Source: a virus
Lineage: Duplodnaviria > Caudoviricetes
Length of the DNA stretch: 43,130 bases
Reading direction: 5' to 3' (one strand)
IMG/VR virus record: IMGVR_UViG_3300037313_000786
Span: 1-43,130 of that record
The position numbers and the translations under genes were made by a program. Positions 3,137-40,405 of this stretch are shown here, piece by piece; the first letter of the stretch is position 1; each line of letters starts with the position of its first letter. The notes beneath the pieces were generated by a model. That model searched no databases. It was not told the DNA's origin and was given only the letters and a program-made list of their open reading frames with translations.

Positions 3137-3216
3137 GGGCACTTTATCCGGCTCTCGTGCTTCGCACGGAACCTCAATCTTCGTTTAGTTTCCGCCTATC
3201 GGCTTCGATCCGGGGC
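3137..3216 (+). repeat. Dispersed structured element copy D (partly decayed)
   Basis: GGCTCTCGT..CAATCTTCGTT..GGCTTCGATCC shared with copy C. Confidence 0.7.
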
Positions 3217-3536
3217 AGGGTCTTGGCGCGCTCCAGCAACGCCAGCGCGGTCAACTGAAGCTCCTTCGGGCTCACTTCCTGCCTCTTCTTCGTCAGTCGC
3301 TTGTGAACCAGCATTGATGATGTGACACCGGCAGCGCCACTCAAGCCATAGGTGAGCGCGGCAATCCAGCTCATGTCACGGAACAGCGCGCCCCAGAGCG
3401 TTGTCTGCGATAGGGCGATGAGGAAGCTGCCACATGCCGCCAGGCCAAAGTTGCCGTGGTTCACGCATCGGCTCTGGAAGCCGAGCAGAAACACGCTCCC
3501 GTATCCAGCGGCGAAGATCAGCAGCAGGTGCGTCAT
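3174..3536 (-). CDS. Membrane protein (about 3 TM segments)
   Basis: Hydrophobic segments; ATGA overlap with upstream gene. Confidence 0.7.
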   Translation of the reverse strand: MTHLLLIFAAGYGSVFLLGFQSRCVNHGNFGLAACGSFLIALSQTTLWGALFRDMSWIAALTYGLSGAAGVTSSMLVHKRLTKKRQEVSPKELQLTALALLERAKTLPRIEADRRKLNED

Positions 3537-5779: not shown

Positions 5780-5800
5780 AAGTCCTTCGCTGTTGATTTA

Positions 5801-5876
5801 GCGGGCAAGCACACGGGTTGTGTCGCGCGCCTTCCAAGCGCTGCTGAGTGGGGTTCGACTCCCCCTGTCCGCTCCA
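5801..5876 (+). tRNA. tRNA-Gly(TCC), atypical
   Basis: GCGGGCA/TGTCCGC acceptor, U discriminator plus CCA, loop CTTCCAA, GGTTCGACTCC; lacks U8 and has stem mismatches. Confidence 0.85.
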
Positions 5877-16541: not shown

Positions 16542-19500
16542 TACGCGCCCTTCCGCGATACCGTCGCCACGGCCTCACGCACCATTCCGGCCTGCTGGAG
16601 CGCCGTCCTGCGATCCCGTCGCGGGTCGCCCGTGTTCGGGGCCATGACGCTGATGTGATAGTGGGAGTCGCCGTTGCTGTTGGCTGGAACCGAGACCTTC
16701 GGCACGCGCGGGATGACCGCCAGCGTTTCGCCGCGCGTCACCATCGCCAGGGGCTTGCCGTTGAGAGAAAGCACATTGCTGTCGCCACCGCCCATGCCGC
16801 CGAGCGTCATCGCCCCGCCGCTCGCGAACGCCGGAATCGCGCCCGCGAACACGCTCCCGCCGCCTCCAAGCAGACCAGAGCCGAGGCCGAAGTCCATTCC
16901 AGCCGCCGAGCCGAAGCTTGCTCCACCAGCAGCGAACGGCGAAGTTCCAGTCCCCAGCAGACCAGCGCCCATGCCGAAGTCCATGCCTCCGGTTCCGGTG
17001 ACTGCCTGAATGGCTTTCAGGACGAGCATCTTGACGATGATCGCCGTGATCTGCGCAATCATGTCCTGCGCGACCTGACGGAAGGCATCGCCCATGCTCT
17101 GCGTGCCGGAGACGACAGCCGAGATGCCGTTGACCAACCCGTTGAGGCCTTCGACCTCGACGTTTTGCAGCGCTTCGTTGACCTGATCCGCAGTTTGCGG
17201 AATGCCGTCCAGATACGTTTGCAGCGGACCCCTGTTCTGCTGATCGATGACCCGTCCCTGTGACGCTTTCTCGGCAGGCAGGCGGTTGATTTGCTCCTGT
17301 AGCCGGGCGGCTTCGGCGACGTTGCCAGCAAGCTCCGCCTGCGCCTTCAGCGACTTTAGGTGCTCTTCCTTCTCCTGGTAAACCAGGTCGAGAATCTGCT
17401 TTTCGATGGTCTTGCGCTCGTTGGTGGTCTTGGCGAGCGATTCCTTGTTGTGCAGCAGCTCGATCGCGAACTCGTAGCTGTCCTGATCGCTCTGGTCCTG
17501 ATCGCGAAGCGCGTTGATCTGCTTCTGGACTTCAATGTTGGCGATCTTCTGCGCCGCGACCTGTTCAACCTTGCCCTTGAGGATGTCAGCCTGCGCCTGG
17601 CTTAGCTTGCCTTCCTCGACATCGTTCTGGATCGCATTCTCGGCGCGCTTCGCTTCTGCCCGAACCAGTTCTTCCGCATATTCCGCCTGCCGCTGCGTAT
17701 CATCGACCAGCGCCATCTGCGCTTGCAGAAGCTGGTCGTTGAGCTGGTCGGAACGCTCCTCGAAGCTGTTGTCGTTGCGGATTTGCCGCGCTTGTTCGGA
17801 CTGCGCCGAACGCTCCGAAGCCGCCGCGTTGGACCGGCTTCCCTCGATGTGGAAGTGGCCTTTTTCCTTATAGACGGCAGTGAGCGAAACGCCCTGACTG
17901 CCGTAAATCTTCTTCAGCTTCTCGGGGGTGAGGCCATCGGCAAAGGCAATGTCCAGCGCCCACTTGCCGTTGATGCCCTCGTGGGCGGATGTGCCTGGAC
18001 GCGCAACCGGATTGCCGGGGCGGTTGACCGAAGGATCGTTGTAGAGAGACGCCTGCTTTGCGGTCGAGCGATAAGCGCTGGTGACGGTCAGACCGGCAGA
18101 CTTGGCGATCTGCGCCGCTTCGTCAAAGCCGATCTGCTTGCCAAATTCGCCAACGCCTTTCTTCGCATCACGCGCTGCCTTTGCAGCGGCATCCAGCGAC
18201 TTCGCCATCGCGTTGACGCTCTTGGTGTAGGCGTCGGGGCCGATCTTGCCCTGAACCAGCGCCTGCGTGAGCGAGACGATGTTCGTCCCGACGCCCTTGA
18301 TACTGGCACCGGCAGAAGCCGCTTCGTCGGAAGCCTTGCGGGCGCGCTCCAGCGCTGACTCGACAGGCGCAAGGCTGTCGGCGAGCTTCTGGTTGGTCTT
18401 GGCCGTTTCCTCGATGCGACCGCGCGCCACATCGTAAAGCTGAGTCAGTGCCGCAGACGCACTCGCAGCCGCATCCGCCATGTCGCGCGCAATCGGAATG
18501 GATGCATCGCGAATGGTGCGCTGGCTTTCGACAATGCCCGACTTGAGCTTGCCGATATCCTCATTGACCTTGGCGATCTGCCCATCAACGCGGGCAAGGG
18601 CAGCGCGGATCGCAGCCTCGTCTTCCGGCGTAATAAGCGGGTTTTCCAGCCCTGATGCAATACCGGAACGGCGCTGCTTCAGGCCCGCGAGCTGACGTTC
18701 GCGATCGGCAAGCTGGCCCTGCTGGCCCTCCAGCCGCTTCTGCGCCGCATCGAGGTTCTGGCGGTTCTGGATCGCCTCTACGCGGATCGACTGCTCGATC
18801 TCGTCGCGGAGCTTCTTCTGCGCCTCGCGAACACCATCGATCGAGTTGGCCCAAATCTTGTTCGCCCGCTCGTTGAGAGAGGCCTGGTCCGCCTCCTTCT
18901 TCATCTTGGCGACAAGATCGCTGACGCTCTCTGCGGCGTCCTTGTGTCGTGACGAGAGGAGAACCAGAAGCGAAGTAGCGACAGAAAGCGCCAATCCCCA
19001 CGGACCCGCGAGGATGGACAGAAACTTGTTGGTCCCGCCGCCCATCAGCTGAAGCGTCTGGATGACCTGACCGCCCTGCTGGGCGAAGATGGTCATCGGC
19101 CTCACGCCAAGGGCGAAGCCCTGCGCCACGTCGCCGATCTGGAACGACAGCTGCTGCATTCCGGAGCGCAACTGCCCCGATGCACCGCCAACGCGCCCGA
19201 ACGAACCGATCTGGCTATCCAGTTGGGATTTCAGCCCCGCCTGGACCTTGGCGAACTCCTGCGCCGATAGGGAGCCCGTTTTGTAGAGCTGGTTGGCCTT
19301 TTCCAGTTCCGTGTCGTAACGGTGCTGCGCGGCGAATAGCGGATCGATGGAGGCAAGCAGCCCCTTCGCCGCCTTGTCCCCGGCGATGAACGCCTGCGCC
19401 GAATCCTCAGCAGACTTCCCAATCCGCGAGAACGCCTTGTCCACGCGGGACAGGGACGCATCCATCGCCGTCGCGTCGTTGGCGACTTGCCGCGCGAGCG

Positions 19501-32184: not shown

Positions 32185-32206
32185 TTACACCCTCCCACCC
32201 TCTTGG

Positions 32207-32668
32207 CTATGCTGCTGACACGTCCACCAACTTGCCGTTTCGCATTTCGAGAAACCCGACGCGCAAGCCCACGTCGCGCATCCACTTCGGCATCCGATCA
32301 ATCTCGGATTGCGTGAGCGGCGGTCCAGGCTTGCGCTCTGGCGGCGGTGGCAACGGTGGCCCGCCGATCGCTGTCGGTGCGGGCCGCGATGCCTTGCGCC
32401 GCTCAGACACTAGCCGAGCGATCTCGGGAACGATCTGGTTGTGCCGAGTGACCGTGCGCCGGACTTCCGCGCTCACATGGCGAACCTCGTCGGCGCGAAT
32501 GTCGTCCAGTGCATCCACGGCGGCACGCAGCCACATTTCCTGCTGCTCCGTCGTCATGGATGACGGGGCGACCAGGGCCAGCATTTTCGCCAGCTCAATG
32601 GTGAGCGGACCCTGACCCGAGTATCCTGCCGACTGCTTCTCCGAGTGGATTGGTGTTAGGTCGTTCAT
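32207..32668 (-). CDS. Replication-associated protein
   Basis: Follows the initiator; W...L.D....P.I motif. Confidence 0.55.
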   Translation of the reverse strand: MNDLTPIHSEKQSAGYSGQGPLTIELAKMLALVAPSSMTTEQQEMWLRAAVDALDDIRADEVRHVSAEVRRTVTRHNQIVPEIARLVSERRKASRPAPTAIGGPPLPPPPERKPGPPLTQSEIDRMPKWMRDVGLRVGFLEMRNGKLVDVSAA

Positions 32669-34094: not shown

Positions 34095-34532
34095 CTATGC
34101 GGCCTCTCGACTGGATTTGGGCGATGCCTTCGGCCCGCTCTGCCGTCCTTCGGACTGAGCCAAATCTTCGTTTGTCTCAGCGCTTCGCGCGGCTGCCGCT
34201 ATCGCAAAGACAACCCGCGCATCCTTGACCGGCTCGGCAAAGTGGTAGCTCGGCAGGAAGCGTCGGTCGTTGACCTTCAATGCGTCCGCAATGCCGTCGA
34301 AATACGGCTTGCAGCGGTTCGGGTAGTTTGTCCTGTCCCCGCGCCTGTCAGGCGGGTAGAACGTCACCACCATGCGTATATCGCCGCCGTCCGGAACCGA
34401 GGCCCCCGCCGCCAGCGTGGCGAGCCGCGCCCATTCGCGGTGCTTCTTCTTGACGGGCTGGAGCTTGCGCCAGTGTGCGTTGTGGTGACCGCTCAACGAT
34501 GCGGGCGGGAAGGGCAGCACGATATCGGTCAT
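34095..34532 (-). CDS. RusA-like Holliday junction resolvase
   Basis: LPFPP, PPDRR.D..N...K...D......NDR motifs. Confidence 0.8.
   Translation of the reverse strand: MTDIVLPFPPASLSGHHNAHWRKLQPVKKKHREWARLATLAAGASVPDGGDIRMVVTFYPPDRRGDRTNYPNRCKPYFDGIADALKVNDRRFLPSYHFAEPVKDARVVFAIAAAARSAETNEDLAQSEGRQSGPKASPKSSREAA
34119..34205 (+). repeat. Dispersed structured element copy E
   Basis: GGGCG...TGAGCCAAATCTTCGTTTGTCTCA...CGCTATCGC; encodes the RusA C-terminal tail. Confidence 0.75.
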
Positions 34533-35455
34533 GCGGCTTCCCCGAGCAGGTTCCGATTGTGCGGCCGGTTGATCCATAGCACTTCGGTTCGCGCCCGTGC
34601 GCCGTCTGCAAGGTGCTTACGTTCGACGCGGCACCAATCGCTCAGCGCCTCGTCATAGAGCGGATGCGGATAGCCTGAGAGGATAACCGTGCCGGCGAGA
34701 CTGCGCAGGAATTGCAGAAGCTCTGCGTGCTCGTCGTCACTCAACTCGACCGCATAATCCTTGCCCGTGTCCGAGCGCGTCGAGAGGACGTAGGGCGGAT
34801 CTACGTAGTGCAGCGTCTCTGGTGTATCATGTGCCGCTATTGTCGCTTTGGCATCGCGGTTCTCAATGACAACGCCGGAGAGCCTGTCGATGATTTGTGC
34901 TAGAGCATCCGGGTAGTTTGACCAGTCGTGTGCCGGCGTCGTTCCGGAGCGGTTGCTATTGGCGCGGAATCCGGTGGATCTGTTGTGCCCGTTGCTGCCG
35001 AAGCCCATGAACGAACGGACGATTAGGCGGCGCGCACTCTCTACCGGATCGTTACACTCGCCATACGCTTCCATGAACTCGTCGCGAGCGAACGGCGTTA
35101 GGCGCACCTTTTCGACAAGTTCGTGTGCGCGGTCTGAGCGCAGCACACGGAACAGGTTAACTACAGCCCCGTCGAGATCGTTATAGACTTCGGCGTAGGC
35201 GCGAGGCTTACGGATTAGGATGGATCCTGCGCCGCCGAACGGTTCGACATAGATCCTGTGCGGCGGGAAAAATCCCATGACCCACGGCGCGAGGTTCCAT
35301 TTGCCGCCGTGCCACCGCAGAAGCGGTCGGCGTGGTTGCCCGCGCAATGGGACACCCACCGAAGGCGGAGACAACGAAGATTGGCTCCGTTCATGGGTGG
35401 CCCGGTTCCGCGAAGCGGAATGCGCCCTGTCCGGTGATTGTGAGTCCCCCACCAT
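34529..35455 (-). CDS. DNA adenine methyltransferase (Dam/D12 family)
   Basis: W.GGK, YVEPFGGAG, ND and DPPY motifs. Confidence 0.92.
   Translation of the reverse strand: MVGDSQSPDRAHSASRNRATHERSQSSLSPPSVGVPLRGQPRRPLLRWHGGKWNLAPWVMGFFPPHRIYVEPFGGAGSILIRKPRAYAEVYNDLDGAVVNLFRVLRSDRAHELVEKVRLTPFARDEFMEAYGECNDPVESARRLIVRSFMGFGSNGHNRSTGFRANSNRSGTTPAHDWSNYPDALAQIIDRLSGVVIENRDAKATIAAHDTPETLHYVDPPYVLSTRSDTGKDYAVELSDDEHAELLQFLRSLAGTVILSGYPHPLYDEALSDWCRVERKHLADGARARTEVLWINRPHNRNLLGEAA
35342..35427 (-). repeat. Dispersed structured element copy F
   Basis: Reverse complement GGGCG..CCGGGC..GGAGCCAATCTTCGTTGTCTCC..CCCATTGCGC; encodes the methylase N-terminal extension. Confidence 0.75.
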
Positions 35456-35489
35456 GACGGCTAACTCTTCTGGGCGATTGCGCTATGGG

Positions 35490-36839
35490 TCATGCCGCGA
35501 GCCTTTCCGCACGAATGGCTTCCACCATCGCGATCCGCTCGCCGATCCAGCGCATGACCGGGACTGCCATCGAATTGCCGAGCGCTTTGTATCGCGGCCC
35601 ATTTGCTGCCGGCTTTCCGCGATAGGGAATGAGGGTGTAATCGTCGGGGAAGCCTTGGAGACGTTCGCACTCACGAGGGGTGAGACGACGCACGGCAGAC
35701 GCTTGGCGGATTGCAGGATAGCCTTGACCCGGTTTCCCGCCGCCCTTGTTCAGCGCCTGCACCGTGTCCGTTTCCCAGACTTGCGCTTGTTGGTTCTCCA
35801 TGAACGCCACTGCCGGCATCACCCCTGCGTTCGCATGGCTTCCCGAATGTCCTCCCGCCCTCAGTGTCGGGGATATGTCGGAAGCGTCGCCGCCGTGGTC
35901 CTTTGCGGTGAAGCAGATTGCGTGCTGGTCGCGGGCGGTGAGCGAATACATCGTGCCGTCCGTGTTGACGCCGATGCCATTCTGCTTCTTCTCGCGCGGC
36001 GTGTTGACCGATTGCAGCGCCACAGGCACCAGCGGCGTTCCGCGCCCCGTCCCGTCCTCGGATGCGTCGAAGCCCTCGGCGCGGAGGGAATGGGCGACGA
36101 TATCGGAGACGCCTTTGTAATCGCGGGCGCTGACCGTCGAAGCTACCGGAGCCGTTCCATATTCGCCGCTCGACTGCCGATCGAATGTCTGGATCAGCCC
36201 TCCGTCGCAGTCGAAGTCTGTTCCGAGGCCACCGCCAGCAGTGCTGCGGCTAGGGATGGTGGGAGATGTTTGCCCATTTTCTCTGCGCGGCGCAGGATGC
36301 CCCGACAGGCTGTGGCGCTCAAATAAAACCGCCGCGGCACGTCGCCAGTCTCCAAGATGTCCAACAAGGATGACGCGACGGCGTCGCTGTGGAACTCCGA
36401 AGAACTGAGCGTCAAGAACTCGGTAGGCGAACCCATACCCGAGTTGCGCCAGCCCTCCGAGGAAGGCTCCAAAAGCCCTTCCTCCGTCAATCGACAGGAC
36501 ACCGGGCACGTTCTCCCAAGCCAGCCAGCGGGGCCGTTTGCGATCAGCAAGGCGGACGTATTCAAGCGTGAGGTTGCCACGCTCGTCATCCAGTCCTTTT
36601 CTAAGGCCTGCAACGCTAAATGACTGACAGGGGGTGCCTCCGACAAGAAGGTCAATTGGGCCATACTCATCGGCTCCGATGGTGGTGAAGTCGCCGTGCA
36701 GCGGGGTGTCGGGATAGTGGTGCTTCAGGATCGCGCGCGGAAACGCCTCGATCTCACTGAACGCGGCGGCTTCCCATCCGAGCGGGTGCCACGCGACCGT
36801 CGCCGCTTCGATGCCGGAGCAGACGGAGAGATACCTCAC
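35490..36839 (-). CDS. DNA cytosine-5 methyltransferase
   Basis: GTPCQ, ENV, QRRRR, RRLTPREC.RLQGFP and GNS motifs. Confidence 0.93.
   Translation of the reverse strand: MRYLSVCSGIEAATVAWHPLGWEAAAFSEIEAFPRAILKHHYPDTPLHGDFTTIGADEYGPIDLLVGGTPCQSFSVAGLRKGLDDERGNLTLEYVRLADRKRPRWLAWENVPGVLSIDGGRAFGAFLGGLAQLGYGFAYRVLDAQFFGVPQRRRRVILVGHLGDWRRAAAVLFERHSLSGHPAPRRENGQTSPTIPSRSTAGGGLGTDFDCDGGLIQTFDRQSSGEYGTAPVASTVSARDYKGVSDIVAHSLRAEGFDASEDGTGRGTPLVPVALQSVNTPREKKQNGIGVNTDGTMYSLTARDQHAICFTAKDHGGDASDISPTLRAGGHSGSHANAGVMPAVAFMENQQAQVWETDTVQALNKGGGKPGQGYPAIRQASAVRRLTPRECERLQGFPDDYTLIPYRGKPAANGPRYKALGNSMAVPVMRWIGERIAMVEAIRAERLAA
36194..36670 (-). CDS. Nested out-of-frame ORF resembling the M.EcoHK31I beta polypeptide
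   Basis: SS..W.NSGM...L.DILET....YLS...C.GILRRA...GK.LP. Confidence 0.6.
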   Translation of the reverse strand: MSMAQLTFLSEAPPVSHLALQALEKDWMTSVATSRLNTSALLIANGPAGWLGRTCPVSCRLTEEGLLEPSSEGWRNSGMGSPTEFLTLSSSEFHSDAVASSLLDILETGDVPRRFYLSATACRGILRRAEKMGKHLPPSLAAALLAVASEQTSTATEG

Positions 36840-37000
36840 AGGAATCTCTCCACCGCCATCTTCATCAAATAAGGCGATTGCAGAAGGACAGAGACATACA
36901 GCGCCCCAAGCGCGAAGAAGAACAGATCCCGAGGAACACGGCAGACCTGGTGGAAATACCAGCGACCGAAGGATGCGATGATGCGGACGGCGCGGGTCAT
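36836..37000 (-). CDS. Small membrane protein (not in ORF track)
   Basis: ATGA/GTGA overlaps on both sides; one TM segment. Confidence 0.6.
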   Translation of the reverse strand: MTRAVRIIASFGRWYFHQVCRVPRDLFFFALGALYVSVLLQSPYLMKMAVERFL

Positions 37001-39313: not shown

Positions 39314-39631
39314 ATGAGCAAGGATATTGGGCGTTCCCCTGCTGCGCAGGGTCGGGCTGCTGCCGCTGACGCGGTGGAACCGGTTCCCGTCTCCAGCAAA
39401 GCCAGCATCCCTAACGCAGAAGAACGACTCTTGCGTGTGCAGACCGCGTTGGAGCGGCGCGTTGCCACTTACTTGCTGAAGCAGCGCCTATCAGACCCAC
39501 TAGGGGATGACGACTGCAACAAGCACGAGCGCTACGCCTTCGCGGTCGAATGCTTCGAGGTGTTCGCGCAAGAGGCTGGCTTGGAGATTCCGCCGTTAAT
39601 CTACCACCACTCCGAGGAGACAGGGGCATGA
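39314..39631 (+). CDS. Early hypothetical protein, N-terminus encoded by element A
   Basis: GAGGGGG RBS. Confidence 0.6.
   Translation: MSKDIGRSPAAQGRAAAADAVEPVPVSSKASIPNAEERLLRVQTALERRVATYLLKQRLSDPLGDDDCNKHERYAFAVECFEVFAQEAGLEIPPLIYHHSEETGA
39329..39417 (+). repeat. Dispersed structured element copy A
   Basis: GGGCGTTCCCCT..GGGTCGGGCT...ATCCCTAACGC. Confidence 0.75.
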
Positions 39632-39981
39632 GCGCGTCACTACCCTGCGTGGTTTGCGAGCGGGAGCTTGAGGACGCAATGCCGGGGACGCGGGACAATC
39701 ACCCCGACGACGGCTGCGCAGCCATAGTTTACGGCAACTATGGTTCAACCGTCTTTGACCCGCTGAACGGCTCCTATCTGGAACTCAACATCTGCGACGG
39801 TTGCTTGGTTGGCGCGGCGTTGAAAGGTCGCGTTCTCTATCATGCCGGGCGCGTCAGGCCACATTTACGCAACCCAACGCCGTGGCAACCGCCCGCGTCA
39901 GCGATCGAAGCGCGAAACGATGTGACCGGAACGGACGCAGCCGAAGGCGAGAGCGCGACCCCGCAGGGGGACGCCCAATGA
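39628..39981 (+). CDS. Cys-motif hypothetical protein, C-terminus encoded by element B
   Basis: CVVC, GNYGSTVFD and ICDGC motifs. Confidence 0.7.
   Translation: MSASLPCVVCERELEDAMPGTRDNHPDDGCAAIVYGNYGSTVFDPLNGSYLELNICDGCLVGAALKGRVLYHAGRVRPHLRNPTPWQPPASAIEARNDVTGTDAAEGESATPQGDAQ
39895..39976 (-). repeat. Dispersed structured element copy B
   Basis: Reverse complement GGGCGTCCCCCTGCGGGGTCGCGCTCTCG...GCTTCGATCGCTGACGC. Confidence 0.75.
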
Positions 39982-40136
39982 ACGCGGTCAACGACAACAC
40001 CATCCCCGACGACAAAGGCATGTCCCTCTATTTCGAGGAAGTCCGCGCAACGCTGCTCCTATGGCTTGCCTACACCTGCGTGGGGTTTGCGATTGTGCTG
40101 TTGTGCTTCTTTGCGGTGGCGGGGGTGAGGCCGTGA
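39978..40136 (+). CDS. Small TM protein
   Basis: Coupled ORF with hydrophobic helix. Confidence 0.6.
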   Translation: MNAVNDNTIPDDKGMSLYFEEVRATLLLWLAYTCVGFAIVLLCFFAVAGVRP

Positions 40137-40405
40137 CTGGGCGCTCCGCTTCGCGGACGGGCTCTCGTCCTACGGATGAAGCCGCAATCTCCGTTGCGTC
40201 TTCACCAAAGGCTTCGATCCCTAGCGCGTTCGACGACGCGATACTCGAAACGGTGGGTTACGCAATCTCCGCCAGCATGTGGGGCAACGCGCAAGCCAAA
40301 ACATTCTTCGAAATCAAGACGCGCAACGTCCATTACGGACTGGCGATCAACGCTGCCCGCGATGCTCTAGTCGCATACACCAAAGCGCGCGGAGAAGCGG
40401 CATGA
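40133..40405 (+). CDS. Hypothetical protein, N-terminus encoded by element C
   Basis: GTGA overlap. Confidence 0.55.
   Translation: MTGRSASRTGSRPTDEAAISVASSPKASIPSAFDDAILETVGYAISASMWGNAQAKTFFEIKTRNVHYGLAINAARDALVAYTKARGEAA
40139..40227 (+). repeat. Dispersed structured element copy C
   Basis: GGGCGCTCCGCTTCGCGGACGGGCTCTCG...GGCTTCGATCCCTAGCGC. Confidence 0.75.

Follow-up and report, generated by a model that had tools for sequence, protein, structure and literature searches.

The window, as we call the whole stretch of 43,130 nt analyzed here (IMG/VR record IMGVR_UViG_3300037313_000786), is a complete circular genome of a temperate tailed phage with a 127-nt end repeat, and encodes an integrase, repressors, Erf, NinB, RusA, two methyltransferases and a morphogenesis block. 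Its early and accessory regions harbor six copies (A to F) of a repeat of about 85 bases, and the morphogenesis block is devoid of them. The host is probably a sphingomonad, because the sole named tailed phage found with full copies is Sphingopyxis phage VSN-002. Throughout, F denotes the strand of the element written in the first-pass annotation and R its reverse complement; bit scores refer to model R1, which was made from 60 elements found on other viral contigs and excludes the window copies.

Copy A (39329-39417, plus strand; 46.7 bits, E 9e-7) begins 15 nt past the ATG of ORF 39314-39631 and continues its reading frame. Its minus-strand DNA fold was more stable than shuffles (z -3.7), and this strand is predicted to carry the working fold. 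Copy B (39895-39976, minus strand; 68.8 bits) codes the C-terminus of ORF 39628-39981, whose stop codon overlaps the following ATG. Facing each other as left and right bookends, A and B enclose a payload (39418-39894, plus strand) comprising the central parts of two small ORFs that belong to no known family; neither ORF matched PHROG or Pfam, and a search for relatives of the payload found none. Copy C (40139-40227, plus strand; 70.3 bits) lies directly past the GTG of ORF 40133-40405, and its minus strand likewise folded better than shuffles (z -3.2). No partner copy was found for C, nor did blastn match it to named phages.

E and F form a second inward pair; neither this pairing nor that of A with B had been noted in the first pass. 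Copy E (34119-34205, plus strand; 50.9 bits) takes the place of the final codons of the RusA-like gene 34095-34532 (minus strand), and copy F (35342-35427, minus strand; 45.2 bits, fold z -6.4) forms an N-terminal extension of the Dam-type methyltransferase gene 34529-35455 (minus strand), whose family match begins only at residue 42-48. Outside copy F lies a scaffold spacer of 41 bp containing a stop and a start codon (35427-35467, minus strand), which is identical in relatives L256 and L258 where different genes occupy both sides. Also overlooked previously was the remnant outer tip of a lost copy, 14 nt long (35472-35485, plus strand) and identical to the tip of the full copy at the same site in L258. 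Two element-free gene junctions of the window (32185-32212 and 36836-36987) carry the element in relatives L257 and L258. Copy D (3137-3216, plus strand; 33.8 bits, E 2e-4) is decayed and has lost the first hairpin. Positioned antisense, it covers the 3' end of the minus-strand gene 3174-3536, a match to PHROG 30225/7045, and contains the stop codon.

A pattern derived from A to C matched only these three copies in a circular search of the window. R1 recovered exactly A to F (E 4e-11 to 2e-4; next match E 1.3), so all six copies originally described are retrieved by a model made without them. A possible seventh copy, G (2152, minus strand), did not survive: it was absent from the 16 R1 matches up to E 5, and its fold was no better than shuffles (z -0.55 and 0.02). 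For C, D, E and F, the first-pass description of the C.T mismatch, stem changes and TCT(T/C)CG loop is accurate; this loop is not general to the family. The proposed polarity, sense just after start codons and antisense just before stops, is correct for A, C and F (sense) and for B and E (antisense); D had been misplaced after a start codon, and its true position at a gene end obeys the same rule.

Scanning beyond the window revealed a widespread family. Viral contigs yielded at least 133 loci, with about 660 stretches estimated, many by chance, and genome contigs an estimated 17,000 or so stretches. Genomic copies are mostly single and intergenic, beside housekeeping genes, and temperate phages carry up to 14 copies each. 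The consensus fold comprises a basal stem, a side hairpin, a mismatch stem and three hairpins meeting in a four-way junction; the mismatch recurs in the central hairpin. In alignment A1, hand-picked by eye as 60 of 129 distinct pattern matches, 90% of cells were paired as against 70% in shuffles, and changes in stems were two-sided in 324 cases versus one-sided in 15. Covariation extended to columns unconstrained by the search pattern (8/106 and 34/99), and RNAalifold recovered most of the same pairs unaided. A second set (A2) of 52 copies from protein-chosen loci was 92% paired, A2 having been fitted to the model. Peptide-driven conservation was considered and rejected, since F-oriented copies enter reading frames in all three phases (8/7/6). 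The single-stranded fold proposed in the first pass is thus conserved as a structure, by covariation in A1, RNAalifold and A2 and by the use of all three frames, and its choice between DNA and RNA can now be narrowed.

Loop statistics point to DNA. Among 110 elements, 191 of 193 CTNCG apexes were in triloop register and one was in the UNCG register of RNA; triloops reading GNA numbered 205 on R, the Flavo-1 strand, versus seven on F. G-U pairs are scarce in the covarying fold. DNA stably accommodates C(GNA)G triloops and sheared G.A pairs. Given this register and the GNA bias, the working form is in all likelihood a single-stranded DNA fold, and the working strand is likely R, opposite to the strand first described, so that the C.T mismatch reads A.G. 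Vienna DNA energies also favor R, but they reward such loops and are not independent evidence.

The first pass had likened the termini to the Flavo-1 RNA motif (Rfam RF01705; Weinberg et al. 2010, in the portion of PMC2864571 consulted). Seed rows of RF01705 bear this out in reverse complement, where the termini are identical, and the portion of the seed alignment in PMC2864571, whose main text lists Flavo-1 in one table row only, displays those of R. A scan of the window against Rfam gave no Flavo-1 match up to E 5 and nothing else relevant. RF01705 matched none of 12 phage-type loci and five of eight Bacteroidota-type loci on R, one of them above the gathering threshold (42 bits). R1, derived from phage copies, scored phage-type and the shorter Bacteroidota-type elements alike. 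The window element shares with Flavo-1 a GAT...AGC terminal stem with an A.G mismatch and the flanking termini; it differs in having a four-way junction instead of a long inner stem, in lying within reading frames and in inward pairs, and in giving no RF01705 score. By these sequence comparisons it is a relative of Flavo-1 and not a member by score. Rfam classes Flavo-1 as an sRNA, whereas the loop and pair statistics here favor DNA, and excerpts of PMC9723704 describe Flavo-1 matches as sense or antisense to transcripts without pattern. We found no account of these phage pairs or of a Flavo-1 priming role in the literature searched, most subscription papers being outside its scope.

The polarity rule holds in other genomes. 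At independent loci picked by Erf or RusA, 21 of 33 F-oriented copies versus seven of 25 R-oriented copies were at the start side of an ORF (p 0.009), and 15 of 25 R-oriented versus four of 33 F-oriented copies were at the stop side (p 0.0002), by an ORF test that is crude, with backgrounds of 31% and 12%. Single ORFs often enter through an F-oriented copy and exit through an R-oriented one. A first tally of adjacent copies gave 16 inward, five outward and four direct arrangements, and neighbors in eight whole or partial records gave 23, 19 and 13, respectively. Within 700 bp, inward pairs were the most frequent both in the same eight records (15 inward, nine outward, two direct) and in a second set (26, 10 and one). 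Payloads between copies include a deaminase and an HNH nuclease, most being of no known kind. The base just past the inner end is a purine in 102/126 phage, 82/94 genome and 12/12 microvirus copies, compared with about 50%. Two purines follow in 71/126 phage and 71/94 genome copies and only 2/12 microvirus copies; such a two-purine flank could simply block extension of the basal stem. The outer flank of the element is T-rich.

Other arrangements were also encountered. Eight small or lytic-looking contigs (L436, L441, L454, L416, L434, L413, L437 and L444) have single copies of a short form that, unlike the paired form, lacks most of the first hairpin. A gammaproteobacterial chromosome (L167 in G009) has at least 16 copies, several of them direct, between genes of no known family, an arrangement unlike the phage pairs.

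Comparison of relatives indicates that genes are exchanged at the element. Four of 22 RusA relatives carry E (one being nearly the window itself) and 18 of 22 end normally, so that homologs without the terminal extension, for which the first pass proposed to look, are the majority; two of four relatives of the gene at D are without D. Mosaic breakpoints, the other check proposed there, coincided with elements in allele swaps in 10 pairs, a count that leaves out window B/L281 as not clearly allelic. In five of the 10 (L033/L113, both ends of L075/L435, L451/L461 and L257/L258), the scaffold and the element end are kept and the payload changes no more than 3 nt from the inner end. The L075/L435 slot holds payloads of 310 and 544 bp with breaks at both slot ends, and L277/L278 breaks within about 5 nt of the inner end. 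For window E/L257 and L077/L119, and likewise L033/L113, it is mainly the three-hairpin domain that is swapped; window E versus L257/L258 and L077/L119 are exact three-hairpin swaps with both flanks kept. Window F/L258 and window D/L358 break at the outer tip. Breaks thus fall also at the outer tip and within the element, and phage mosaic joints favor gene boundaries anyway.

A further suggestion of the first pass, a mini mobile element inserting alone, found no support: among flank matches of 220 elements, a small sample, we found no lone insertion, no empty site with both flanks and no target duplication. With allele swaps present and lone insertion absent, the elements act like slot boundaries that for the most part remain with the scaffold. 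The element is probably a landmark for gene exchange. No RNA data set was listed among the sequencing runs holding the sequence; one run showed contigs broken close to element ends and a gap following copy C, which are not counted as evidence.

Related elements also occur in microviruses, whose genomes are single-stranded, and on conjugative plasmids. A blastn search with one element found two microviruses with one intergenic copy each, R lying on the coding strand. Microviruses made up 12 of 35 Flavo-type viral matches and two contigs among 51 phage-type stretches. Where examined, microvirus copies are single and intergenic, in several lineages. The gokushovirus copy sits in the gap separating the major capsid gene from the gene after it, the place of the phiX174 site according to passages of PMC9865509. 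On a capsid tree, R is on the coding strand in three microvirus clades and F in one. Among 21 microvirus records, the nine with a T-rich coding strand like that of phiX174 all have R there (three lineages). Six records of one clade have R on the non-coding strand, which is very T-rich (skew +0.28 to +0.33) and may be the packaged strand of this exceptional clade. In six further records R is on an A-rich coding strand, and T-richness fails as a rule there. The exceptional clade (L371, L377, L393, L400, L016 and L390) has a strongly A-rich coding strand, and its element is in reverse orientation. Counts of GNA hairpins elsewhere in the genomes did not distinguish the packaged strand (8/7 and 5/6). 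Inovirus copies are half elements only (16 bits).

Among plasmids, IncN pTRE-131 has two direct full copies in the leading region, between oriT and ardB/ssb, both with R on the strand that by oriT geometry enters first. Matching records were conjugative in 117 of 121 cases, mostly of one lineage. The presence of full copies on an enterobacterial IncN plasmid suggests that the element is functional with proteins of E. coli. The part of PMC9849209 consulted states that the transferred strand serves as template for leading genes. On p5482 and pBF9343 the element lies upstream of ArdC-like genes in the same sense, which agrees with a transferred-strand rule if the ArdC-like gene is a leading gene. 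The match on pAsa8 is weak, and partial IncX4 and Moraxella plasmid matches are not members.

On these patterns of sequence and position, our tentative reading, held at somewhat less than even confidence, is that the element may be a host priming signal (ssi-type) for second-strand synthesis that also marks gene-exchange slots, a role absent from the first pass. Signals of the ssi type occupy such places in the sections of PMC3167613, PMC5778457, PMC9865509 and PMC11541004 consulted, and the purine past the inner end fits the 3'-PuPyPy-5' primase motif quoted in an excerpt of PMC3167613. In nine of nine unambiguous microviruses and on pTRE-131, the strand predicted to work agrees with the one expected to be single in vivo, set against the six of 21 microvirus records with R on the non-coding strand. 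The closest comparison is with phiX174 pas and ColE1 ssiA. R1 matched neither site. By eye, features of the element recur in the phiX174 hairpin: a mismatch between purines, then two pairs, tandem G.A and AGCGG. AGCGG occurs on R in 63/140 and 30/77 elements versus nine and four on F. The likeness lies in structured ssDNA with tandem G.A and AGCGG, also judged by eye, and, for phiX174 pas, in the same microvirus place on strands that may exist singly; the element differs in being branched and not one long hairpin, and in occurring in multiple copies per dsDNA phage, at gene ends. By-eye comparison with two F-plasmid ssi sequences revealed no likeness.

A base skew accompanies Bacteroidota copies: in 35 of 48 loci (p 0.0005; loci L134-L213), one strand has a higher C/(C+T) at 150-1000 bp beyond the GGGCG end than at 2-3 kb, and G/A does not shift. 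Such a C-over-T excess would suit a fixed replication event of some kind at that spot, but no strand-specific mutation shadow was seen in phages. The up to 14 copies in a temperate phage speak against priming, being more than replication should need.

Under the priming reading, R would likely recruit host priming machinery, and second-strand synthesis would start at the inner end. Each strand of a slot bounded by an inward pair would carry R at its 3' end, and synthesis primed at R would traverse the payload from either end, beginning at a fixed point, the site of most joints. If a nick or free 3' end persisted at the inner end, it could provoke template switching or annealing by an Erf-type protein. 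A replacement payload would acquire its start codon from outside the left copy and its stop from outside the right copy, and annealing between diverged copies would produce domain swaps. A PriA-type fork would move outward instead. If true, this would give a testable DNA function to an orphan Rfam motif found in thousands of genome stretches, would nominate a second-strand origin in gokushoviruses and gut microviruses, and would provide phage mosaicism with an exact, sequence-defined pathway for the non-homologous gene swaps that underlie it. The part of PMC9865509 consulted cautions that such hairpins cannot be certified as second-strand origins in microviruses. The broader proposal, that Flavo-1 and the phage elements form a single cross-phylum ssDNA priming family serving as microvirus second-strand origin, in conversion of the transferred plasmid strand and as integrase-free phage gene-capture slots whose new payloads join precisely at the primer start, is possible rather than probable.

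Precise joints could instead reflect a dedicated enzyme. The element might be the substrate of an ssDNA recombinase or HUH nuclease (attC-, REP- or RAYT-like) that cuts at the stem base and captures genes without priming, which we consider unlikely. Attractive in this regard are the nucleotide-precise inner-end joints in five of 10 pairs, the exchange of exactly the three-hairpin domain between unchanged flanks, and a T-rich outer flank resembling a target site. Extrahelical marks are features of attC-type single-strand recombination sites, and the conserved mismatches recall them. Yet no recurring recombinase or transposase family was found among 119 genes beside genomic copies, nor any linked enzyme family among 20 payload proteins, crossover points vary, and the single conserved copy in compact microviruses would go unexplained. 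Inverted pairs are not the attC layout either: attC arrays need direct sites, and direct arrangements were two of 26 and one of 37 close neighbors. The only integrase seen in the window was a phage tyrosine integrase (54-1310), with no integron integrase seen nearby. Like integron attC sites and the DUF1874 motif (the part of PMC5737381 consulted), the element conserves structure over sequence, with one small gene per unit and genes exchanged; unlike attC, its sites are inverted and stay with the scaffold while the payload changes.

Two further accounts appear improbable. A selfish REP- or MITE-like repeat could have spread by copying and persisted at gene ends, the sole places to tolerate in-frame peptides, old copies providing homology for Erf-type annealing; the roughly 17,000 genome stretches, single and intergenic beside housekeeping genes, the decayed copy D, the remnant at 35472-35485 and mosaic elements would all suit such a history. 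REP/REPIN sequences with their RAYTs are dispersed intergenic single-strand hairpins, occur as inverted doublets with cargo, and combine a tagged short palindrome with an HUH transposase. The element is similarly dispersed, hairpin-forming and found in inverted doublets with cargo, but no tagged short palindrome or insertion footprint was found, nor a linked HUH transposase among the 119 nearest genes. Lone copies gave no precise empty/filled pair or target duplication, and tolerance alone neither produces sense orientation at starts with antisense at stops nor explains why deep branches of the microviruses retain a single orientation. A regulatory RNA structure or single-strand promoter (Frpo-like) tuning accessory genes, to which we give as little credence, would account for orientation that follows transcription, for plasmid copies upstream of leading genes and for the filing of Flavo-1 by Rfam as an sRNA. 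It is disfavored by the triloop register, the strand bias and the few G-U pairs where RNA is concerned, by both orientations occurring within one mRNA, by the patternless relation of Flavo-1 to transcripts in the excerpts of PMC9723704, and by start codons outside the left copy, which an internal promoter would miss. Judged by the parts of PMC9849209 and PMC11541004 consulted, the element resembles Frpo in lying upstream of leading genes with its folded form on the transferred strand; it differs in being shorter and GC-rich, and in lying also on microvirus coding strands, where it is unable to promote those genes.

Several features of the window lie apart from the element. The G region (2143-2271) is bracketed by an 11-bp direct repeat at 2143 and 2261 with a 41-codon ORF between; each repeat copy holds an overlapping start and stop, and the region is possibly a small insertion or duplication. 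Positions 5800-5873 form a tRNA-like structure with a GTTCGA arm that scored 29 bits against tRNA-Sec (E 0.07). Finally, the tape-measure gene contains two 35-nt repeats, 87 nt apart, at 16866-16987.
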